A stretch of 64,000 bases of DNA from Flavobacteriales bacterium (GCA_044507815.1 JBIQIX010000010.1:68431-132430), one strand, 5' to 3'; positions 39,453 through 50,104 are shown, counted from the stretch's first letter. Notes: generated by a model not told the origin, from the sequence alone. Numbers and translations: made by a program.

Positions 39453-39505
39453 TGTTTCGTTTTGGTTTCAGTGGACCATGGTGGCGCTTCGCGCGAGGGA
39501 ATTGA

Positions 39506-39802
39506 TCAGGTGGCCTCGCCGGGCCCGTCGAGTTCATCGAGTAATCCTTCCAGCTCCCGGCGCAGGGCGTGGTCCAGGTCGGGTGGCTGTTCCTTGGCCG
39601 AGTTCAGCGCGCGGGTGGTCACCTCCAGCGCGGCCATGGCCAACAGGTCCTGCTTGTCGGTGAGCGGGTAGCTCGCCTTCAGCCGGTTGATGCTCTCGTT
39701 GATCTCACGGGCGGCCGCACGGATGTTCTCCTCCTCCTCCTGGTGGATGGTAAGCGGATAAGCCCGCCCGGCCAATTCTATCCTGATTGATCTTTCTTCC
39801 AT
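39506..39802 (-). CDS. zapA: cell division protein ZapA
   Basis: 98 aa. IELAGRAYPLTIHQEEEENIRAAAREINESI is ZapA-like. Sits upstream of rny, as is conserved in Bacteroidota. Confidence 0.75.
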   Translation of the reverse strand: MEERSIRIELAGRAYPLTIHQEEEENIRAAAREINESINRLKASYPLTDKQDLLAMAALEVTTRALNSAKEQPPDLDHALRRELEGLLDELDGPGEAT

Positions 39803-39823
39803 GGTGTTGGGGCCGTGTTGCGC

Positions 39824-40108
39824 CTAGGGGTTCAGCAAGGCCAGGCAGCGGTCGATCTCATGCACCAGTTCGTCGATCTTTTCCTTCGTTCCTTCACGGG
39901 CCGGCCGCAATGCGGCCTTCTCGTTGCGAAGTACCTCGTTCTCCTGCTCCAGCTCCTGCACGCGCGACCTCAATACCTCGCGCTCCCGGTCCATTTCCCG
40001 GTGGCGGAGTTCGAGCTGCGCCAAGGACCTGGCCAAACGCGCCTCATTGGCACGAAGGTCTTTCACCTTCGCATGCGCCAATTTGACCCGTTCCACCAGT
40101 GATCCCAT
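39824..40108 (-). CDS. small coiled-coil protein (ZapB-like position upstream of zapA)
   Basis: 94 aa, predicted entirely coiled coil (LRxELEQENEVLRNEKAAL). Confidence 0.45.
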   Translation of the reverse strand: MGSLVERVKLAHAKVKDLRANEARLARSLAQLELRHREMDREREVLRSRVQELEQENEVLRNEKAALRPAREGTKEKIDELVHEIDRCLALLNP

Positions 40109-40220
40109 AGCTGGACAAAAGACCGTTATGGTCCGTGGCCAAATATAATGGCGATCCCACGTCGCACCTATTGTGCGGGCATTTTAGCTGCGTTTTGGGC
40201 TTTCGGCCCGGTGGCGCCTG

Positions 40221-42068
40221 CTACTCTTTTACAAAGGCCGCGCTTTGCGTGCTGCTGCCGCCGGGCAATACCACCCGCAGGCTGTACCAGCCCTTGGCGA
40301 GCTGGCCGGTGGGCAGTTCGCCCTTCACCTGTCCGCGCCACATTCCTTGTGCTTGCCGGGCCACCACGCGGCCCAGGGCGTCCTGCACCTCCAGGCTTCC
40401 GGTGCCCTCATCGGTGCTGGTGAACAGCACTTGCAGCCGGTCGCGGGCGGGATTGGGGAAAAGCACAGGCCTGCCCCAGGCCATGCCGCCCATGAAGGCC
40501 ACCACCACCTCGGACAGTTCGGCCCTGCCGTCCACATCCACTTGGTTCAGCCGGTAATAATTGGCGCCGCTCAGGGGTGCATCGTCGGTGAACAGGTATT
40601 CCACGCGCTGCTGGCTGTTGCGCATGGCGGCCACCTGGCCCACCGTGTGGAACGTATTGCCGTCGGCGCTGCGCTGCACCTCGAAGTAGGCGGCATCCTG
40701 CTCGGTGGCGGTGGCCCACAGTACATCGATCGTGGAAACGCGCGCCCGGGCATCAAGGGACAACAGTTCCACGGGCAGCGTGGTGCAGTTGAGCGAGGTG
40801 CCCCCGGTAAGGTTCCAGGTGAGGCTGAAGTTCTGGCCGGTGGCCGACCAATTGTCGATGTACAGCACGTACACCTTGCCGGCCAGCACGTTCAGCGGCG
40901 CAACCCATCCGTTGTTCGAATTGGGGGGTCTGCCGGCCCCTTCCGAAAAATCCGTTGCACCGTTGCCCATTCCGCCCACGTACGAGTTGTAATAAGCATT
41001 GTCGAAATAACTGCACCGCACAGGAGGCACGTTTGGGCATTGTGCCGCATCAAACGGGCCCCACAGGGCAAAATCGTAATCATCGTTCCCGGACGGCGTT
41101 AGCGTGAAGCCCAGCGTGCCGGCCGTGCTGGGGGAGAAGAAGTACCAGGAACCTTGGCGTTCGTTGTTCAACAGGCAACCGCGATTGGTGGCGTTAAGAT
41201 CGATCGAGCATCCGGGCGTTGTGGCATTCTGGGTAATGCTTTGGCCGCTGCATACGGTAACGCCCCCAACGCAATCCTGGGGTTGTGCAGCTGTGGAAGC
41301 CGTGCAGCTCGCTATTATCTTGTATGGCTTATTCTGCATAACCGGCCGGTCGGTACGGAAGAGGCATTGACCAGCACCGGTCACCTCAAAAGAATTCTGG
41401 GTATAGTACAATGCTCCACCCGAATAATAGATGAATTGTACCTCATCCCCCTCATTCACCCAAATGTCCGCCACACCGGCAGAGCCTGAGTTCAAGGTCC
41501 ATGCGCCCATGTTCATGCCATTAACCAATACCACAACGTATGCAGTACCCACCCAATCACTCCAGCCGTTGTTCCCTGAATCGTACAAATGGAGTTCCAA
41601 TTTGCATTGTACATTATATAGGCACAATGTCCCGTTCATGGCGCTGTTGTTTGTGCCTTGCACCCGCACGTAATAGCGCGTGCCGGGCACGGTGGCCACC
41701 GTCACCTGTTCGGCACCGTTGGCCCCCAGGTTATCGGCGCATGCCAGCACGGGGCCCGTGCACGAGGCGAGCACGTGCAGAATGGCATCCGCCCCGCTGG
41801 TTGTCGGCGTGTATTTCACCAAGGTGGCGGTGCTGGTGGCCACGAACGACCCCCAGGCATCGTCCAAGCTGCTGGCACCGCAGCCGCCCGGGTTGTAGGT
41901 GGCCGTGTAACTGGAGGGCTTGTTGAAGCCCAGCGGCACGCAGGTGCCATTTACCGGATAGGTATTGGCCGCGGCATTGGTGCACGCATTGCTGCTGTTT
42001 TGCCCGTGCAGCTGGCCGCTGAACAGGGCCATAACGCACGCCATCGGTGGAAGTAGGATCGAACGCAT
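40221..42068 (-). CDS. secreted hypothetical protein with T9SS C-terminal sorting domain
   Basis: Signal peptide. Cys-containing, N/T/G-rich beta-rich body. C-terminal LFPNPARDRLQVLF...WYSLRVVLPGGSSTQSAAFVKE T9SS-type domain. Confidence 0.6.
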   Translation of the reverse strand: MRSILLPPMACVMALFSGQLHGQNSSNACTNAAANTYPVNGTCVPLGFNKPSSYTATYNPGGCGASSLDDAWGSFVATSTATLVKYTPTTSGADAILHVLASCTGPVLACADNLGANGAEQVTVATVPGTRYYVRVQGTNNSAMNGTLCLYNVQCKLELHLYDSGNNGWSDWVGTAYVVVLVNGMNMGAWTLNSGSAGVADIWVNEGDEVQFIYYSGGALYYTQNSFEVTGAGQCLFRTDRPVMQNKPYKIIASCTASTAAQPQDCVGGVTVCSGQSITQNATTPGCSIDLNATNRGCLLNNERQGSWYFFSPSTAGTLGFTLTPSGNDDYDFALWGPFDAAQCPNVPPVRCSYFDNAYYNSYVGGMGNGATDFSEGAGRPPNSNNGWVAPLNVLAGKVYVLYIDNWSATGQNFSLTWNLTGGTSLNCTTLPVELLSLDARARVSTIDVLWATATEQDAAYFEVQRSADGNTFHTVGQVAAMRNSQQRVEYLFTDDAPLSGANYYRLNQVDVDGRAELSEVVVAFMGGMAWGRPVLFPNPARDRLQVLFTSTDEGTGSLEVQDALGRVVARQAQGMWRGQVKGELPTGQLAKGWYSLRVVLPGGSSTQSAAFVKE

Positions 42069-42239
42069 GGCAAACCCGGATCAAAGAGCAACCAAAAAGA
42101 AGCATTTATTCGACGAATGTCAAATGCTAACACATGAATGTTGAATAATAGACGATTAAATTACGGGAAACCCCCCAAAATCGGGAGGGGATGCGGCCAT
42201 GCCGCCCCGCATTCACACGGTTTGCTTCACGTTTGCCGT

Positions 42240-42865
42240 TCAGGCGGCCCGCCCCAGCACCGGTTCGCTGGGCAGGCCCTCGCCCATGGCGCCCACGGCG
42301 GTTACCCGGAACCAATAGGCCCTGTAAGGTTCCAGGCCCTGCATCAAGTGCGCCACTTTGCCGGTTACCGCGGCCAAGCGCCATTCGGCCCCTTCGTTGG
42401 TGGGCAGTTGCTCGCAAATAGCAATGTGGTAGATGCGTCGGTTGCGCACCCCGCTCCACCTGAGTTCCATTTCGCCGCTTCGGCCTGTCATACGGGTGCC
42501 AATTATGGTGGGGGCCGGCAGTACTTGGGGCTGTGCGGGCTTTTTGGCCAGGCCGAAGCCTGAGCTTTCGATCATGGCCGCATTGCCGGCGGCCTGCATG
42601 CGCACATAATCGGCCATGCGCCGCAGTACGGCACAAACCGCCTGTACCTGGTCGTCGCGCTGAAGCTTGCTGGCCCGGCTGCCCTCATGGGCCTCGGTGA
42701 TGGCCAGTCCCAGGCGGTCGGCCATTTCCTCCAGTTGCGCCGCTGCCACCGGCGGTGCGGGGAAGTCCGGATTGTCCTTCATGCCCGTTGCCACATGCAG
42801 GGCAAGTTCGCGTACCCGGGCGGGGGTGAGCCCCTTGAGGCCAAGTTTGAGGCTTGCTTTCATGA
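42240..42865 (-). CDS. hypothetical protein with C-terminal fibronectin-III-like domain
   Basis: Start moved to MKASLKLGLKG (208 aa). C-terminal ELRWSGVRNRRIYHIAICE...YWFRVTAVGAMGEG resembles an FN3 fold. No signal peptide. Confidence 0.4.
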
Positions 42866-43239
42866 TCTTATCGACGGTTTTGGTGCATTTCGCCCACGAA
42901 TTGGTGCTTGGAAGGGCAATACGTCCGACAGGGTTACCGGGCGTGCCCGGCCGGTTGCGGTGCCTGTGCCGAGCGGCAGGCCGTGGCATGCCGCGCGTGC
43001 CGCGGCTTGGCCCCGCCTGCATGGCCGCCCCCTGGCGGCCGGATGCGGCCATGCCCCCTGTTGGATGCCGGGCCGGGTGCGGGAGGGTGAAGGGCCTTAC
43101 CCAAGCGGCGGGCTCTCCGCTACCCAACGGGTGATGGCTTGCACCCAAGAGGATGCCGAGTGGCCCCCGCACGGTGCCGCGGCCGCCTGCGCCCGGGTAT
43201 TGCGGCCCACCCTGCCGCTTGGTGCACACACCTTGCGGA

Positions 43240-43455
43240 AGATGCAGGTGAGGAAGGAGATGAAGGTGAGGTAAGGAGAGGAAGGAGAAGAAGGTCAGGA
43301 ACGAGAGGAAGGTGATGAAGGAACGACCTCCCTTACCCTACTTACCTCCCTTACCCTCCTCACTAACTTTACCAAACACCGAAGGTGCGGCAGGAAAAGA
43401 AGGAAATGCAGGAGAGGAAGGTGAGGAAAGAGATGAAGGAACGCGCAAACAGCAG
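43240..43455. repeat. purine-rich (GAAGGA-like) / pyrimidine-rich low-complexity block with inverted-repeat potential
   Basis: Read directly: a ~75-nt GA-rich run (gaggaaggagatgaaggtgaggtaaggagagg...), a ~45-nt CT-rich run (cctcccttaccctacttacctcccttaccctcctc), then a ~65-nt GA-rich run. The CT run is complementary to GGTAAGGGAGG-type segments of the GA runs. Confidence 0.75.
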
Positions 43456-43462
43456 CTGAGCC

Positions 43463-45541
43463 TCACTTCCCCTCCAACTCCTTCAGCTTTCTGTCCAACA
43501 GGTATTGGCGCAGGGCATCGGCGCGTTGGTTCAGTTCCTGTATGTACAGGGCCTGGTCCTCCACGGCGATCCAAAGCTGGTTGGTGAGCTGGTCCAAGCT
43601 GGCCGGGCCGTTGCGTTGCCAGGCCTCACGGCCATCCACGTTGGGCAGTCGGCGTTCGCGCTCCACGTAATTGGGCAGTTCCTTCAACGGAACCCGCACG
43701 TAATTGCTGGCCCCCTTGGCATCCTCGGGTTTGGCCTGGCCATCGTAGTACAGGTCGAACACGTAATCGGTGAGCAGGGTATTGTCGCTGTACACGCTCC
43801 GCTGGGCGTTCAGTGTGCCCGGCCCACGGAAATTGCCCGGGGTGGTGGCCCAGGTGGCCGAGCCCACCATAAGGCCCTCGTTGGCGGTGATGTAATTGCC
43901 CACATCATACAGGGCGCCGCCACCGATGTATTTGGCCAGGAACGCCACACGCGGCAGGGCCTGCGTACGGGCCGGGTTGCCGCCACCGGTGTAGCCGTAG
44001 GTGCCATCACAGGTGCGGGTGTTGGTTCCGTTGGTCATGAACCAACCGCTTACCCAGCCCCAACCGGCCACGTTGGCATTTGTTCCTTGGTAACCGTTGG
44101 TGGGGCTGGAGGGCGGGTACACATAGCCTGCCGGGGGCGCTGTGGACCAGTTGCATGCGCCGGACGACGGGTGGCCGCAAGCATCGCAATAGGTGGATAT
44201 GGTGCTGACATAGCTGGTCGTATAGGTATACACTGAGCCACTTTGGATAGAGGGTGAAGTCCACTCCTGGTTATCCAGGGAAGCATCCAGCAACAGGTTC
44301 TGGCCGCTCCACACAAAAGGGGCCGTGCCGTTCAGCCCGTCCGGGGCATGCACATTCCAGCCCGTGTTCACCATATACCCGGTAAGGTGGTCAGTTGGGT
44401 AGGATGTCGGCGTGTTCGTTGGGAAATCCGGCAGGGCGAATAGCGAAAGCCCATTGTCATCGAACAAGTTCGTGGTGGTGGCGGTCGTATTCTTCATGCT
44501 GAAACGCAGATAGTGTATGCGCCCGTTTGCTGAGCCTACACTATTCACATAAAAGGCGATGGCGCGGATGGGGTTGGAGGGACCCGGGCACAAGCCTGTG
44601 GCGTTGATGTCGCTGGCCAGATAGAGGTATTGCCTGCGGCCGTCCTCCCAATAGGTGTAATAGGGTGAGGTTGGCCCGCTGAAGTAGCCGAAGCCTGTGC
44701 TCGGCCCCGGTATGGGCCACGGCCGATCACCGTCCTCAACCGAGGTGCCGACAAGAGCGGGATTTGATACGTCCTGGCAACCGCCGGCCTGGCTGGTGCG
44801 CTGTTGGTATTTGCGCTCGTAGAAATTGTTGTCCAGCTGCCTCCATCCGGCCACGGTACCCGTGCCGGCATTGTTCACATAGCCTTGGAAACTGCCGGGT
44901 GCCCCCCCGCTGGGCGGAACGAACACCATGGTGCCCTCGTTGGCGGCCGTTCCTGCGGGTGGCATTACACTGGCATTGCCCGAAAGCTTCACCGCCCCCT
45001 GCACGTACACCAGTTCGCTGTTGATGTTCGAGCTCTCCTGGTTGTAGGAGCCGTAGGTGGCCGGGTAATTGCCCGCATAGAGCTGCAACAGACCGGCCTC
45101 GGTAAGGCGGCCGCGGTCCTGATCGCTGGTGCGGAACACCAAGGGCCTGTTATTCACCGAGCCCAAGAAATCGTTGGCCCCGGTGCCGGCATTGCCGCCG
45201 AGCTTCCAGGCGCGGCCCCAGGGCAAATGGCGCCAGATCGCGGGTGGCGTGCCCGCATCGTAATAGTAGTAGCCTTTTGGCTCGGAGCCCGCCGAATCGG
45301 TCTGGTACACGATCAGGCCATCGGGCAGGCCCATGGACATGGACGGTGAGTTGCGCTCGCTGCGCGTCATGCGCGGGGCCAGCAGCCCGCGCGTGGTGCT
45401 CTTGATGTCGAGCAGGGCATTTCCGGCGGGCGGCGAGCCATCGGCATTGATGGCCACTTGGGCGGAAAGGGCCAGGGCCATGGCCGCTGCCGCGGGCAGC
45501 AACAGGGCCCTGGGTGTCAATAGGTGCATGGGGCGGATCAT
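43463..45541 (-). CDS. secreted paralog A of a three-gene family (tail-fibre/adhesin-like, unknown function)
   Basis: Start MIRPMHLLTPRALLLPAAAAMALALSAQ overlaps the paralog B stop in an ATGA arrangement. Conserved N-module INxxGxxPxxxALLDIxSxxRGLLxPRMTxxxR...GLxVYQTD. Conserved C-module HLPNVDGREAWQRNGPASLDQLTNQLWIAVEDQALYIQEL. Confidence 0.6.
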   Translation of the reverse strand: MIRPMHLLTPRALLLPAAAAMALALSAQVAINADGSPPAGNALLDIKSTTRGLLAPRMTRSERNSPSMSMGLPDGLIVYQTDSAGSEPKGYYYYDAGTPPAIWRHLPWGRAWKLGGNAGTGANDFLGSVNNRPLVFRTSDQDRGRLTEAGLLQLYAGNYPATYGSYNQESSNINSELVYVQGAVKLSGNASVMPPAGTAANEGTMVFVPPSGGAPGSFQGYVNNAGTGTVAGWRQLDNNFYERKYQQRTSQAGGCQDVSNPALVGTSVEDGDRPWPIPGPSTGFGYFSGPTSPYYTYWEDGRRQYLYLASDINATGLCPGPSNPIRAIAFYVNSVGSANGRIHYLRFSMKNTTATTTNLFDDNGLSLFALPDFPTNTPTSYPTDHLTGYMVNTGWNVHAPDGLNGTAPFVWSGQNLLLDASLDNQEWTSPSIQSGSVYTYTTSYVSTISTYCDACGHPSSGACNWSTAPPAGYVYPPSSPTNGYQGTNANVAGWGWVSGWFMTNGTNTRTCDGTYGYTGGGNPARTQALPRVAFLAKYIGGGALYDVGNYITANEGLMVGSATWATTPGNFRGPGTLNAQRSVYSDNTLLTDYVFDLYYDGQAKPEDAKGASNYVRVPLKELPNYVERERRLPNVDGREAWQRNGPASLDQLTNQLWIAVEDQALYIQELNQRADALRQYLLDRKLKELEGK

Positions 45542-47871
45542 GGGCGGGCGTGGGCTTGGGGGGTGCGTTTGCGCATGGCCTCGATCAGGCGGGCCTTTTG
45601 GGCATCGGTATAGCCCGGCAAGGTGGCCAGTTGGCCGCTGGCGGCGCGGAACTCGGCCAGGTTGAGCGGCCGGTCGTTGGCCAGCAGTTCGATCAGGTTC
45701 AATTGGTCGTGCAGGTCGGCCACGTACAGGGCGTGCGTTTCCGCGGTGGTCCACAGCTGGTTGGTCAGGTCGCCCAGGGAGAACCCGCCGCTGCGGTTCC
45801 AGTCCTCACGCCCCCGCATGGTGGGCAGGTGGCGGTTCCGCTGGGTGAAGCGGGCCATTTCCTCCACGCTCAGCAGCCGCTGCCGGCCGAAATCCGCGGC
45901 CTCGGCGGCCGCCACCCGGCCATCGAAGGCGCGGTCGAACACGTGGTCGTTCAGCCTTACCCCATTGTCGTAAATGCCTTTCTGCGCACTGATGGTGCCG
46001 TTGCCGGCGTAATTCCAATAGGTGTACAGGTTGGGGAACCCTGGCCGCATGCGGCCCCAGGGCAGGCCCGGGCTCATGCTGTTGATCCGGGCGGCAGCCG
46101 TGCTGTCCTCCAAGATCAACGCACCGGGGTAGGAGATGAAATTCGCCGTGCCGGATGGAACTGGACCCGAAACGCTGGACACCGTGCCCCCGAAACGGAT
46201 GATCGGGCGGTATTTCGATGGACCCCGATTATAGCCAGTTGGCCCGCCGGAGACCGTACCCAAATCCGGGAACAGCAATTGCTTATTTAGGGTGGCGGGG
46301 TTGAAAAGTGCCTGCGGGCCCCACGCCGCGTTGGGGTACGGGTTGGTGAGCGGCACGTAGGGCGGAGTAGGACTCACCGATTTCGTATTCGCAGCGTAGG
46401 TCATGTTATTCGCTGCCGATGGTATGCACCGAACATTCGCAGGACCACCATAAGTTGATCCAATTGCAATTGCGACAACCAGTTCCACAATGATCGGGCT
46501 TTTCCCGTCCCAAATGAACGGCGTGGTCAGGTTAACCATGTCCCAGCCTTGGACACCAACGGGCACGTTCGGCCATTGCGCGGGGAGAGGCCCCCAACCG
46601 GTGCTCGCTGGATCGCTGGGCGGTGTGTTGTCGAAGCCATCCAGCCGATCAAGGCCAAGCGGTGCGTTGCGCACGATGATATGGGATTGACCCGGCATGG
46701 TCGACTCTTGATAACCACCACTAGAGTTATTCACATAAAAGCCCACTTGGTTCACCGGCTGGTGGGGGCACAGCCCCTGTTCGGCCAATGGGTTCACGGC
46801 CTGCGAAAGCTCCAAGTTGAGTTCGCTGGGCAAGTACAGGTATTGGTGCCGATATTTTGGAATATACAGGTTTGGTGGTGCTATAGGATTCCGCCAATAT
46901 GGACTCACCAGTTCCTTTTCCGTTGTCCCGTTCACCACAGCAGTTAAGCTATTGGACCCAATGATCGGGTTGGGTGCTGGCGAGGGGATCTCTGTAAAAC
47001 TGTTCGGGGTGCATACCGGTTCCCTCACATCGGTCCACGCTTTCCCCGCCACCACCTTGTAGGGGTTTTCGAAGGCCCGCCACCCTCCCCTGCTGGGTTG
47101 GGTAAATGTAGGGGGGGCGGTGCTGGTGGAATTGCCGGGCTTCGGCCCGCGGCCATCCACATTGCCCCAATGGGCGGCATAAAACAAGGGGGCCAAGGCG
47201 TTGTTCACCGTGCCCACCACATCGGATGATATGATGGCCGTAGCAAACTCCTTCTCTTCCAGGCTGCCGAGCTTGTAGGGGCCTGTGCCCATCAGCGTGC
47301 CGAAAGGTTGGTTGCGCACCACGCCCGGGGCATTGGTATCGCTGGGTTTTTGCCCGGCTGGTGGTTCGTAATAGATCTGCAGCCTGCCATTGATGTCCAA
47401 CCGCTCCTGGGGCGGCGTGCCAGCTGTATAACCCACGGCCAAATAGCCGGTGGTGCCGCTGAGGTGCATGCGGTGCAGGTTGTTGGTGCGGAAGTTCAAC
47501 GGCTTGCCATCGGTGGTGCCGATGAAATTGGGATTGGGGGTGCCCACCAAGTGGTTGCCGTGCAGGTCCCAATTGTTCTTGCCCGCCTCCAGCGGTTTCC
47601 ATACGCCGCCATCCACCACGTTGAAGCCGCCCCCGGCGCCGGTGCGGTACATGGTAAGCCCATCGGGCAGCCCGGCCGCGGCCGGCAGGCTTGCGGTGCG
47701 GGGGATCAGCAGCCCTTGGCTGATGGAGGAAAGATCAAGCAGGGCCTTGGGGTGCGCTGCCGCTCCCGTGGTGTTAATGGCAATGTTGCCATTCTGTGCC
47801 CAGGCCACCCCGGCCGTGGCCAGCAACAGCCCCAGGGCCGCCGAACGGGCGATGCGGTTATGGTTGCTCAT
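45538..47871 (-). CDS. secreted paralog B of the same family
   Basis: Signal peptide MSNHNRIARSAALGLLLATAGVAWAQ. The same N-module (NIAINTTGAAAHPKALLDLSSISQGLLIPRTASLPAAAGLPDGLTMYRTG) and C-module (HLPTMRGREDWNRSGGFSLGDLTNQLWTTAETHALYVADL). ATGA coupling on both sides. Confidence 0.6.
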   Translation of the reverse strand: MSNHNRIARSAALGLLLATAGVAWAQNGNIAINTTGAAAHPKALLDLSSISQGLLIPRTASLPAAAGLPDGLTMYRTGAGGGFNVVDGGVWKPLEAGKNNWDLHGNHLVGTPNPNFIGTTDGKPLNFRTNNLHRMHLSGTTGYLAVGYTAGTPPQERLDINGRLQIYYEPPAGQKPSDTNAPGVVRNQPFGTLMGTGPYKLGSLEEKEFATAIISSDVVGTVNNALAPLFYAAHWGNVDGRGPKPGNSTSTAPPTFTQPSRGGWRAFENPYKVVAGKAWTDVREPVCTPNSFTEIPSPAPNPIIGSNSLTAVVNGTTEKELVSPYWRNPIAPPNLYIPKYRHQYLYLPSELNLELSQAVNPLAEQGLCPHQPVNQVGFYVNNSSGGYQESTMPGQSHIIVRNAPLGLDRLDGFDNTPPSDPASTGWGPLPAQWPNVPVGVQGWDMVNLTTPFIWDGKSPIIVELVVAIAIGSTYGGPANVRCIPSAANNMTYAANTKSVSPTPPYVPLTNPYPNAAWGPQALFNPATLNKQLLFPDLGTVSGGPTGYNRGPSKYRPIIRFGGTVSSVSGPVPSGTANFISYPGALILEDSTAAARINSMSPGLPWGRMRPGFPNLYTYWNYAGNGTISAQKGIYDNGVRLNDHVFDRAFDGRVAAAEAADFGRQRLLSVEEMARFTQRNRHLPTMRGREDWNRSGGFSLGDLTNQLWTTAETHALYVADLHDQLNLIELLANDRPLNLAEFRAASGQLATLPGYTDAQKARLIEAMRKRTPQAHARP

Positions 47872-49937
47872 GGCTTGGTGGTAAGGGTGGTTTTGTGGCG
47901 AATGGCCTGCACCAAATGCTCTTTTTGCGGTGGCGTAAGCCGTTTGCTCTCCTGTATTTCCTTGATCAGTTCACCGGCACGCTCGGCCGAAATGGGCCCG
48001 CCGAAGCTCATTTCCTCCAAGGCGGCCAGGTCCTTTTCCAACTGGCTGATGTACAGGGCCTGGTCCTCCACGGTTTGCCACAGGCCGGTGGCCAGCTTGC
48101 CCAAGCTTGCGCCCCCTGTGCTTTCCCATTGCTGGCGGCTGGGCATGTTGGGCAGGTGCCGTTGTTTTTCGAGCGTTTCGCGCAGTTGCGGCAGGCCGAT
48201 GTAGGCATAGCCCACGGCCGCGGCCTCATCGGCGGGCTTCACCACGCCATCGAAATAGCGGTCGAACACATGGTCGCTGAGCAGGGTATTGCCATCGTAC
48301 ACGCCGCGTTGCGCCTTCACATTGCCCGGACCCCGGAAGGGTGTGCTGTTGGCCCAAGCATTGTCGCCGATGTGCACCGAGCCATCGTACTGCAGAATAT
48401 TGGCCTGCCGGGTAACGGTGCTGGGGGTGGCCACGGTGGCGGTGAAGCGGGTAACGGGGCGCCAATTATGGATCCCGACCGAAGTTGAAGGCGGTGCCGG
48501 GTTATCCCACAACGCTGCGCGACTGCCCAAATTAGAATTGGGATTTTGGGTGTTGATCACATACTTGGTCCGGTTATACCCGGTGATCTGCTGCAATTCC
48601 ACTTTCGGGCCAACCCCTGTACCCACGCTCCGGCTCCAGTTGATGTCGATCACCAGGTTCTGGCCCACATTCAGCGTAATGGGGTTGGTGAGGTTGAAGG
48701 TGATCCAGCCGGGGGCCGGCGTTAAAAGAGTGAATGAGCCACGGACCGGGGTTTGTGTGCGGATGTTGGCGTCCATCCATCCAAAATAGGGATCTGGATT
48801 GAGCAATGTGCCGGCTGAAGGCGCGCCTCCACGGATCTCCCCTTCCAACCGCGTTGCCCCGGTGGGGTTGTCCAGGGTCTCCTGGTCCAAGCAGAAAAAA
48901 GCGATCTCGGTAATGGTGGCCGGGAAGCAGATGCCCGCTTGCACCAATTCGTTATAGCTATATACGTATTGTACCCGGTATTCGCCCTGGACCCCCGTGC
49001 CGTACGGCCCGTAGTTGGTGGCAAAAGGACTGTAGATGTTGGCGGGGCTATTGGTGGTATTTGTTACCGGCACGGGGCTGAGCACGCCTGTTTGGGCATA
49101 GCCCTGCCCACCCTGGCAGGCCACGGTATCCTTGAGGAAATTGCGCGGCGGCGAGATCAGGTTCTCGGCATTGTCCATTTGCGCCCAATAGGGCTTGGAG
49201 CTGCCGATGCCGGTCAGGCCGGTGTCCAATGTTCCCCAGAAGGCATTGGGGTTGGCGATTGTTTGCGCGCCGCCGTCCAGCGTGCCGTAGCGCATGGCAC
49301 CGGGCCTGGGATCGGCCATGGGGGTGCCGTTGCGCAGCCTGATGCCGCCATTCACCTCCAAGCGTTCGGTGGCCGGCCCCGGTGTGCCCAGGCCCACGAA
49401 GCCGCTTTTTACGTCCACCAGGTTGTACCCCATGCGCCATGCGGGCTCGGGGGCGGTGGCCACGGGCACGGAACGCATCCAAAGTTCCTTGTACGGCGAT
49501 GCGGTGCGGGTGCCCAGGAACTCCATGGCGCCGGTGGCCACATTGCCCACGGCATTGCCGCCGAGCAGCCAGGAGCGCATGGCATGGCTAAGGTGGCGCC
49601 ATTGGTTGGGCGCCGTATTGGCGTCCCAGTACCAAAGGCCCCGTGCGTTGGTGGTATCGGCGCTGGCGCCCACATCGGTCTGGTACACCAAAAGCCCGTT
49701 ATCCGCAGGCGTGGTGGCAATGGCCAGTCGCTGGGCCTCGGTCATGCGCGGCACCAACAGGCCCCGCTTGGATTGCGAGGACGGAATGTCGGTAACATCC
49801 AGGTCCAGCATGGCGGCCGGGTTGGGCGCCGCCGGTGGCGTTTTCACGTTGATCCCTACGTTCTGGGCCTGCGCAAGGAGGCAGGATGCGAGGGCGGTCA
49901 ACAACAGTTGTGCTCGAAGGCGTAACCGTATGGGCAT
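47868..49937 (-). CDS. secreted paralog C of the same family
   Basis: Start chosen at MPIRLRLRAQLLLTALASCLLAQAQ. N-module NVGINVKTPPAAPNPAAMLDLDV...RGLLVPRMTEAQRLAIATTPADNGLLVYQTD. C-module HLPNMPSRQQWESTGGASLGKLATGLWQTVEDQALYISQL. Confidence 0.6.
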   Translation of the reverse strand: MPIRLRLRAQLLLTALASCLLAQAQNVGINVKTPPAAPNPAAMLDLDVTDIPSSQSKRGLLVPRMTEAQRLAIATTPADNGLLVYQTDVGASADTTNARGLWYWDANTAPNQWRHLSHAMRSWLLGGNAVGNVATGAMEFLGTRTASPYKELWMRSVPVATAPEPAWRMGYNLVDVKSGFVGLGTPGPATERLEVNGGIRLRNGTPMADPRPGAMRYGTLDGGAQTIANPNAFWGTLDTGLTGIGSSKPYWAQMDNAENLISPPRNFLKDTVACQGGQGYAQTGVLSPVPVTNTTNSPANIYSPFATNYGPYGTGVQGEYRVQYVYSYNELVQAGICFPATITEIAFFCLDQETLDNPTGATRLEGEIRGGAPSAGTLLNPDPYFGWMDANIRTQTPVRGSFTLLTPAPGWITFNLTNPITLNVGQNLVIDINWSRSVGTGVGPKVELQQITGYNRTKYVINTQNPNSNLGSRAALWDNPAPPSTSVGIHNWRPVTRFTATVATPSTVTRQANILQYDGSVHIGDNAWANSTPFRGPGNVKAQRGVYDGNTLLSDHVFDRYFDGVVKPADEAAAVGYAYIGLPQLRETLEKQRHLPNMPSRQQWESTGGASLGKLATGLWQTVEDQALYISQLEKDLAALEEMSFGGPISAERAGELIKEIQESKRLTPPQKEHLVQAIRHKTTLTTKP

Positions 49938-50104
49938 GGGTAATGCATGGGTTGGGCGAAGACGAAGATAGGCATTTGCCGAAGCTGGCAAAGCCTTTGG
50001 GTTGGTGAGGTGGAAGGGATCCGGGGTTAGGGTTGTTGGGCTTCCACGTTGTGGAAGACGTGCGGGTTGTATGGTGGTTGCTTTTGTTGAAAAATTTTTC
50101 GGCC

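Follow-up and report, generated by a model that had tools for sequence, protein, structure and literature searches.

We analysed a 64,000-nucleotide (nt) stretch of DNA from a Flavobacteriales bacterium (GCA_044507815.1 JBIQIX010000010.1:68431-132430), hereafter the window, which has a G+C content of about 62% and is identical in sequence to GCA_044464825.1 contig JBIQKX010000009.1. Within it lie three tandem paralogous genes, C, B and A, and we lean, with modest confidence, towards reading their products as the three chains of one secreted trimeric fibre-lectin, each present in one copy. This proposal builds on the domain anatomy of the proteins, on their conservation as a fixed gene triplet, and on the appearance of a similar triplet in a second bacterial lineage.

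Gene C (47868..49937, 689 amino acids [aa]) is the first of the triplet and is followed by B (45538..47871, 777 aa) and A (43463..45541, 692 aa), all on the minus strand. Re-reading both junctions reproduced exactly the coordinates and ATGA overlaps given by an earlier reading of the window (the original prediction), with ATGA at window positions 47871..47868 and 45541..45538. The signal peptides proposed for all three proteins are also present, as signal peptidase I-type leaders that end in A-x-A/Q (the slash marks cleavage) and read ...LLAQA/QNVGIN, ...VAWA/QNGNIAIN and ...ALSA/QVAIN, one per protein. Glutamine at position +1 agrees with the Bacteroidetes 'Q-rule' for signal peptidase I substrates. 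In A, the signal peptide, read directly from the sequence, occupies residues 1-27 (45461..45541, cleavage at ALSA/Q), and is followed by an N-module (residues 28-135, 45137..45460), a stalk (residues 136-255, 44777..45136), a beta-sandwich middle (residues 256-545, 43907..44776) and a C-module with a short C-terminal tail (residues 546-692, 43466..43906). C and B also have a beta-sandwich middle, and a long-tailed C-module: the N-module of C, of the PTL_trimer type, lies at about 49518..49877 and its C-module at about 47871..48401, including a tail of about 60 aa, and the N-module of B, a divergent PTL_trimer, lies at about 47452..47808 and its C-module at about 45541..46014. The genes flanking the triplet are housekeeping genes (RNase Y, ZapA, an epimerase, Peptidase_S51, M23, FtsK and peptidases), and library annotation of the window flanks found no phage genes near A, B or C, in line with the absence of phage structural genes noted earlier.

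To place the triplet among its relatives, we classified all open reading frames (ORFs) of 77 loci from genomes by BLAST against A, B and C. The homologous loci came mostly from Flavobacteriales or Cryomorphaceae, with a few from Chitinophagales or Bacteroidales. Searches with A and with B each returned their own full-length homologs, mostly 45-56% identical and two at 71-92%, and the two sets often came from the same contigs. In neighbour-joining (NJ) trees of 141 sequences over 424 shared columns, A, B and C were each monophyletic (bootstrap 100, 100 and 100, respectively; 98, 100 and 100 when the trees were repeated with Dayhoff-6 recoding), and identity was 0.46-0.50 within orthogroups versus 0.31-0.33 between them. 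The gene order was C-B-A in 28 loci and C-B-A-A in 3, all from uncultured Flavobacteriales; no other order of A, B and C was found in these loci, every partial locus being cut by a contig end or split by a frameshift. The C-to-B junction was a 4-nt overlap in 16 out of 32 loci and never exceeded 23 nt, and the median B-to-A gap was 13.5 nt. C, B and A thus constitute a gene unit of invariable order that is conserved widely, a point absent from the original prediction, and this suggests one heterotrimer rather than three fibres; three orthogroups kept 1:1:1, in fixed order and coupled, are what an obligate heterotrimer would show, and this is the pattern found, save for extra copies of A.

The short-tailed A is the only chain ever duplicated. 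C-B-A-A was noted in loci L023, L026, L031 and L040, and locus L025 carries A-A-A in the same metagenome-assembled genome (MAG) as the C-B locus L051. These duplications hint at alternative A subunits for one C:B scaffold. Separately, triplet genes were split into two or three ORFs in loci L024, L030, L036, L039, L040 and L042, four of which carry 'tig...' contig names that suggest long-read assemblies; the splits may be indels of assembly or true pseudogenes.

A second triplet was present in seven Chitinophagales MAG loci, which carry three tandem, tightly packed paralogs (Ch1, Ch2 and Ch3) of 420-480 aa. These proteins are without the PTL knob of the N-module and keep a capping-loop motif, the sandwich and the C-module. 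Ch1, Ch2 and Ch3 grouped together with a bootstrap of 99 (96 after recoding) and A, B and C with a bootstrap of 94 (83 after recoding), and a grouping of A with Ch1 never appeared (bootstrap 0). At the sequence level, this argues for two independent triplications, one in Flavobacteriales and one in Chitinophagales. Both triplets also share an asymmetry in the tails that follow the ...QALY motif: in Flavobacteriales the tails were 24-32 aa for A, 57-63 aa for C and 59-72 aa for B, and in Chitinophagales they were 20-27 aa for Ch1, 60-62 aa for Ch2 and 61-67 aa for Ch3. The long tails finish in a second helix with an [ST]xxxK motif. Single-gene relatives with collagen-type repeats, described below, all have long tails (86-92 aa). 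Three chains arising twice, two long tails and one short, a fixed order and coupling are together predicted by an obligate 1:1:1 heterotrimer and not by a repertoire of fibres.

A three-way alignment of A, B and C showed 30-33% identity, with the conserved columns clustered at both ends. Pairwise tblastn within the window matched the N-modules at E values of 1e-5 to 6e-16 and the C-modules at 1e-19 to 1e-32; the middles matched at 4e-7 for A-B and 8e-4 for B-C, with no match for A-C, and no fourth copy of A, B or C was found elsewhere in the window. Identity within orthogroups and between paralog groups was 0.50 and 0.42 for the N-module, 0.43 and 0.31 for the stalk, 0.40 and 0.24 for the middle, and 0.59 and 0.41 for the C-module, respectively. 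The conserved termini described in the original prediction are therefore real, without low-complexity artefact, as judged by these E values and per-region identities. Its account of the middles held in part: they are divergent between paralogs, as it said, but they are homologous, since they still align and share motifs and cysteines.

The N-module of A opens with the fibre 'capping-loop' motif VAINADGSPPAGNALLDI, which matches the capping-loop logo of the mosaic adhesive trimer (MAT) fibres of Bdellovibrio bacteriovorus. The capping-loop motif of beta-helical fibres, NVGIGTxxPxxKL, has been aligned for Bdellovibrio MAT fibres and Myrf (PMC10769870). In A, the capping loop is followed by the PTL knob, GLLAPRMT...GLIVYQTD...YYYD...W, and then by W.LGGN.GT..FLG...PL.FRT. 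The general opening pattern of the N-module is [VI][AG]IN...P...A[ML]LD[ILV], and the knob consensus is GLLxPRMT..QR.AI...GLxVYQTD...YYYD...W, then W.L.GN.GT...F[IL]GT.DN.PL.F.T. Precomputed annotation in a large protein database assigns PF26696 (PTL_trimer) to C and A, as a 'weak' match to B, and also to orthologs. This family is common to all three N-modules. From the regions that are matched in proteins built differently, PF26696 would cover the N-module only, and no Pfam family describes the head (the beta-sandwich middle) or the C-module. We found no mention of PF26696 or PTL_trimer in the literature. Our local Pfam, NCBIfam and PHROGs libraries gave no significant match for A, B or C, and the whole proteins had no match among Protein Data Bank (PDB) sequences.

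Beyond the window, where the original prediction had proposed to seek the N-module motif, the module heads many Bacteroidota proteins with differing other ends, including YadA-like repeats plus Peptidase_S74, a StcE beta-sandwich and GEVED, among others; the S74-bearing relatives contain SDxRxK. The Leptolyngbya phage Lbo-JY46 has a 380-aa protein (L078 5044..6186) that contains both halves of the N-module with their order permuted: the W.V.GN.GT..NFIGTTDN half comes early, and the capping loop and knob form the extreme C-terminus. This arrangement has a bearing on which end of A, B and C is distal. The knob is probably distal in this cyanophage protein, being C-terminal, whereas the N-domain of MAT fibres is thought to be an anchor (PMC10769870). 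The occurrence of the N-module core in a cyanophage fibre-like protein supports the earlier view that the parts are of phage-fibre type.

The stalk of A contains a second, degenerate knob-like motif, GTMVF...FQGYV...GWRQLDN, found by sequence comparison, and was of low confidence in the AlphaFold2 monomer model, which we built from an alignment of 35 sequences. The only confident part of the full-length model was the middle (residues about 256-545; predicted local distance difference test [pLDDT] mostly 80-94, with a few lower blocks), which is modelled as a jelly-roll beta-sandwich resembling a galactose-binding domain. Foldseek matches of this middle in the PDB were only weak, and comprised the Cwp84 lectin-like domain, CBM32, ephrin-receptor ligand-binding domains and ConA. 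When the full A model was searched against BFVD, no template modelling (TM) score exceeded 0.15 and the root-mean-square deviations were huge; we treated these matches as noise from low-confidence extended regions. The middles of A, B and C share the motifs YRxQYLY...GLCP...IAFYV and NLTxPFxW.GQNL. Two cysteines of A, Cys255 and Cys318, do not vary among 35 family members, which agrees with an extracytoplasmic protein. The three middles are divergent copies of one beta-sandwich domain, homologous rather than unrelated cores. Because orthologous heads are about 40% identical, the head is not a hypervariable receptor-binding cassette; the variable receptor-binding core of the original prediction thus gives way to a single fold that is kept among orthologs and has diverged between paralogs.

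We modelled the C-module of A alone with AlphaFold2 from a 52-sequence alignment, and obtained a beta-hairpin, four short helices and one helix of about 43 residues (mean pLDDT 83.6). In this model, the long helix is a probable coiled coil. Foldseek found no fold match for the model in the PDB (best E value 0.63), and the C-module had no match among PDB sequences. The suggestion that this module resembles Peptidase_S74 failed on every count: hhalign against the S74 ends of PTL fibres gave a probability of 7.8% over 14 columns, isolated C-modules matched nothing in Pfam at E ≤ 10, and the full proteins gave no Peptidase_S74 match at E ≤ 1. The SDxxxK Ser-Lys dyad is also missing from the C-modules, which read LLSDHVFDR, RLNDHVFDR and LLTDYVFDL, with a variable Ser and no Lys at +5, so self-cleavage is not predicted.

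The C-module is widespread. A profile of it matched 356 cluster representatives at E ≤ 1e-30 and 1,390 at E ≤ 1e-10 among 1.84 billion; the proteins bearing it are about 100-2,500 aa long and usually carry it at or near the C-terminus. A separate protein search with the C-module profile gave chiefly short fragments and contributed little. In a genome scan, the C-module followed VGIGTT-type fibre repeats in MAG proteins of Gammaproteobacteria, Omnitrophota, Parcubacteria and UBA2214, where module alignment showed it to be 39-46% identical to that of A; other comparisons with A gave 44-49% identity for the Omnitrophota, Parcubacteria and Gammaproteobacteria MAG proteins and 47% for phage proteins. 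By tblastn, the C-module was absent from 50,697 GenBank phage records; it was present on five IMG/VR viral contigs. One of these, IMGVR_UViG_3300009285_002889 (L079 6204..8330), encodes a 708-aa protein that matches PHROG tail-fibre families and carries the C-module, 47% identical to that of A, at its extreme C-terminus after VGIGTT-type repeats. Its neighbours match terminase, portal, head protease, major head and minor tail families. The C-module thus ends a genuine phage tail fibre amid phage structural genes, which bears out the earlier view that A, B and C contain tail-fibre-type parts. The gene itself lies between the portal/minor-head gene and the head protease gene, outside the tail module, and its product may be a head fibre. 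Such conservation is what one usually sees in an assembly domain rather than in a receptor-binding tip. Judged by sequence, the C-module is a widespread fibre-end module that is unrelated to S74 but occupies the position of the S74 chaperone.

Bacteroidales MAGs contain single-gene relatives (L054 3328..5580, L064 5485..8706 and L068 7966..10647) that have the same signal peptide and N-module, then long collagen GXY repeats, and then the same sandwich and C-module. Pfam Collagen matched two of them (E values of 2e-21 for L054 and 2e-8 for L064), and the GXY tracts, which run for up to about 600 residues, lie between the PTL knob and the sandwich head. The trimeric character of the family is drawn from these collagen repeats, from the S74 ends (a trimer-specific chaperone) of N-module relatives and from the Pfam name. 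With the capping-loop motif, a predicted long C-terminal helix, collagen homologs and S74 relatives all found, the family is linked through its sequence relationships to trimeric proteins.

The triplet also has a constant neighbour. In the window, a gene for a type-A cargo of the secretion system of type IX (T9SS) lies at 40221..42068 on the minus strand (615 aa from the ATG at 42068) and matches Por_Secre_tail at 27.4 bits (cutoff 27) and TIGR04183 at 22 bits (cutoff 23). The public gene call (603 aa, start at 42032) loses most of the signal peptide (window 42033..42068), whereas the ATG at 42068 yields the complete leader MRSILLPPMACVMALFSGQLHG, cleaved before Q. In about 45 loci, the triplet has a homolog of this gene as its neighbour, in most cases directly upstream of C and on the same strand; the window genome is exceptional in having it downstream. 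The homologs combine Por_Secre_tail, which is clear in them, with GBD_T9SS_assoc, CUB or PPC domains. The Chitinophagales loci have a T9SS type-A cargo gene (Por_Secre_tail, 29-31 bits) directly after gene 3, in some cases with overlapping reading frames. No T9SS cargo homolog was found beside the collagen-type genes of L054, L064 and L068. The constant cargo neighbour suggests a surface docking partner or co-export.

Between the cargo gene and A lies a small gene (42240..43022, minus strand), called at 260 aa, whose product lacks a signal peptide; its N-half is helical and its C-terminus weakly FN3-like, the FN3 call on 42240..43229 being below threshold (23.3 bits versus a cutoff of 25). Among the fetched loci, its only match outside the source genome was a single weak one, in L006. 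For lack of conservation, we rejected it as a probable non-member of the system; it has the look of an insertion made as the cargo gene moved downstream of A. Of the two downstream neighbours originally reported, the T9SS cargo gene is therefore present and its linkage conserved, but the FN3 match is sub-threshold and its gene is not conserved.

Taking these results together, we propose the following working model. Tight translational coupling would yield equal amounts of the C, B and A chains, and each would be exported by Sec and have its leader cut by signal peptidase I. A mature chain would consist of a PTL_trimer knob that starts with the capping loop, a short stalk, a galactose-binding-domain-like head and a helical C-module ending in a coiled coil. 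The C-module and coiled coil would probably unite one A, one B and one C and set the register from the C-terminus. The three sandwich heads would then form a three-lobed, asymmetric binding surface, with the PTL knob capping the opposite end. Acting with the lectin-like cargo that the T9SS would secrete from the neighbouring gene, the fibre would most plausibly adhere to, or recognise, a glycan-bearing surface outside the cell, a function suggested only by fold class and by analogy.

Several observations weigh against this proposal. All homologous loci from species-representative genomes are MAGs. The count of genes is not always three, given the extra A copies in some genomes (C-B-A-A, and A-A-A in L025). 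A strict screen for chain-specific conserved residues returned only 5 of 411 columns, and the coiled-coil core positions of A, B and C are ordinary hydrophobics that would suit homotrimers too. The fold matches of the head to lectins are weak (best E value 0.013, TM 0.13-0.21). The NJ trees are distance-based, the two lineages differ in G+C (0.48-0.69 versus 0.36-0.46), and a residual chance is left that the apparent independence of the two triplications comes from compositional artefact or old gene conversion. Finally, A, B and C, whose C-termini are helical, showed neither a T9SS sorting domain nor a lipobox or barrel anchor, and Pfam and NCBIfam searches gave no match to a YadA-type C-terminal beta-barrel anchor.

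The best-surviving alternative is that A, B and C form three separate homotrimeric fibres, each with its own binding specificity, as in the adhesin repertoire of MAT fibres or in a phage that has several receptor-binding proteins; taken a priori, this is plausible. The characterised relatives of this architecture, phage fibres and MAT fibres, are all homotrimers, the single-gene collagen-stalk relatives exist, the head is the region most divergent between paralogs (0.24 identity), and the extra A copies and compatible coiled-coil cores fit as well. A repertoire should, however, vary in number and order. Across the 31 complete loci, the order is instead fixed, reading frames overlap, and exactly one C and one B stand with at least one A. 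The separately derived Chitinophagales set, which again numbers exactly three, the two-long/one-short tail asymmetry in both lineages, and heads that are conserved rather than diversifying among orthologs also speak against it. We consider this alternative rather unlikely. It is essentially the view of the original prediction, which had suggested free-standing adhesins: free-standing secreted fibres do agree with the signal peptides and the lack of phage genes, but we favour one heterotrimer over three fibres.

A further alternative, which also counts against our proposal, is that the proteins form a periplasmic or envelope complex, structural or enzymatic, such as a T9SS or gliding accessory or a polysaccharide-processing enzyme, and not an external fibre. 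The missing outer-membrane export signal and the constant link to a T9SS cargo gene would be explained, and the acidic and Arg/His residues that are strongly conserved in the C-module might serve in catalysis or metal binding. On the other hand, no enzyme or T9SS component family was matched in Pfam, NCBIfam or the PDB, the modules (collagen stalks, capping loops and a phage-fibre C-module) are of the extracellular fibre type, and the triplet occurs only in some uncultured lineages rather than in all T9SS-bearing Bacteroidota; we judge this explanation improbable. It is extremely improbable that the genes supply tail fibres to a prophage, a tailocin or an extracellular contractile injection system located elsewhere, or are a remnant of one: C-module and N-module motifs do occur in phage fibre proteins, but all three proteins carry Sec signal peptides whereas phage and contractile-injection-system particles assemble in the cytoplasm, the flanks here are housekeeping genes, the block lies among ordinary cellular genes, without phage genes, in the neighbourhoods read in four other genomes, and the 50,697 phage genomes gave no C-module match.

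The heterotrimer proposal can be extended to a bolder scenario, in which a phage-derived homotrimeric fibre was converted twice independently, in Flavobacteriales and in Chitinophagales, into an obligate A:B:C heterotrimer with one short-tailed chain; having signal peptides only, this complex would bind its co-encoded cargo and pass with it through the T9SS translocon to the cell surface. We regard this full scenario as a long shot.

Among described systems, the MAT fibres come closest. Like A, B and C, they have a signal peptide, a beta-rich N-terminal domain of about 130 aa and a capping-loop motif; they are trimeric, with an S74 or non-S74 C-terminal end, and are encoded by the cell, outside any phage (PMC10769870). 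The likeness lies in layout and in the capping-loop motif. By contrast, MAT fibres are homotrimers encoded by scattered single genes (PMC10769870), whereas here three paralogs share one operon, a helical C-module follows the beta-sandwich, and there is linkage to a T9SS cargo. S74 phage fibres and tailspikes (endosialidase, T5 pb1) are also trimeric, as is suggested here by the family link, and have a conserved C-terminal module with a coiled-coil end, as is predicted here; moreover, Bacteroidota proteins with the same N-module bear S74 in the place of the C-module. Unlike these fibres, A, B and C have signal peptides, a chromosomal non-phage context, no SDxxxK and no detectable homology to them. 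The phage fibre of L079 shares with A a homologous C-module at its C-terminal end, but it has no signal peptide, PTL knob or sandwich head and is a single gene in a phage structural module.

Complement C1q (tandem C1QA, C1QC and C1QB) offers an analogy only: three tandem paralogs yield one jelly-roll-headed trimer, and collagen stalks occur in relatives of A, B and C. C1q is eukaryotic, with no homology of sequence or fold shown, and A, B and C themselves are without GXY repeats. The collagen-like adhesin Lcl of Legionella forms a secreted trimer in which a collagen stalk is joined to a glycan-binding C-terminal domain (PMC11162425); it differs from A, B and C in being a homotrimer with an unrelated C-terminal domain and in belonging to Proteobacteria. 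Secreted fibres built from phage parts (MAT) and the Pfam family of the N-module are already known. New here are a fixed unit of three chains that has a convergent counterpart, the description of the C-module as a fibre end that is widespread and unrelated to S74, and the linkage to T9SS cargo; our literature search found no description of a three-chain fibre unit, a C-module fibre end or a T9SS-cargo linkage.

Elsewhere in the window, a 167-bp tandem repeat (50108..50775; 4.0 copies, 98% identical) takes up most of the interval that separates the start of gene C from the divergent Peptidase_S51 gene. Each unit contains, on the plus strand, a GC-rich hairpin followed by T-rich sequence, and no other copy occurs in the window. 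An Rfam scan of 39500..51500 found no RNA family, and scans for sigma-70 promoters and terminators performed no better than on shuffled sequences, the promoter model being unsuited to Bacteroidota. At 60001..64000, G+C falls from about 0.62 to 0.38-0.51, and an ORF at 61301..63382 (minus strand) encodes an N6_N4 DNA methylase (E value 4.5e-46); this segment was probably acquired horizontally, for example as a restriction-modification system. No tRNA genes were found anywhere in the window.

To our knowledge, fibres and spikes, whether of bacteria or of phages, and trimeric adhesins are regarded as homotrimers. The finding is so far purely computational, and its practical value is limited for now by the uncultured status of the organisms that carry the loci; it would surprise specialists if the heterotrimer holds. 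If true, the heterotrimer would be a bacterial counterpart of the heterotrimers of C1q and collagen, and if it arose twice with the same tail asymmetry, it would offer a natural system for the evolution of asymmetric from symmetric trimers. A heterotrimer ferried by the T9SS would, if true, be the first bacterial fibre adhesin made as a heterotrimer and also the first substrate to travel piggy-back through that system, and the linkage between fibre and cargo opens the question of how fibres are exported to the surface in Bacteroidota to testing.

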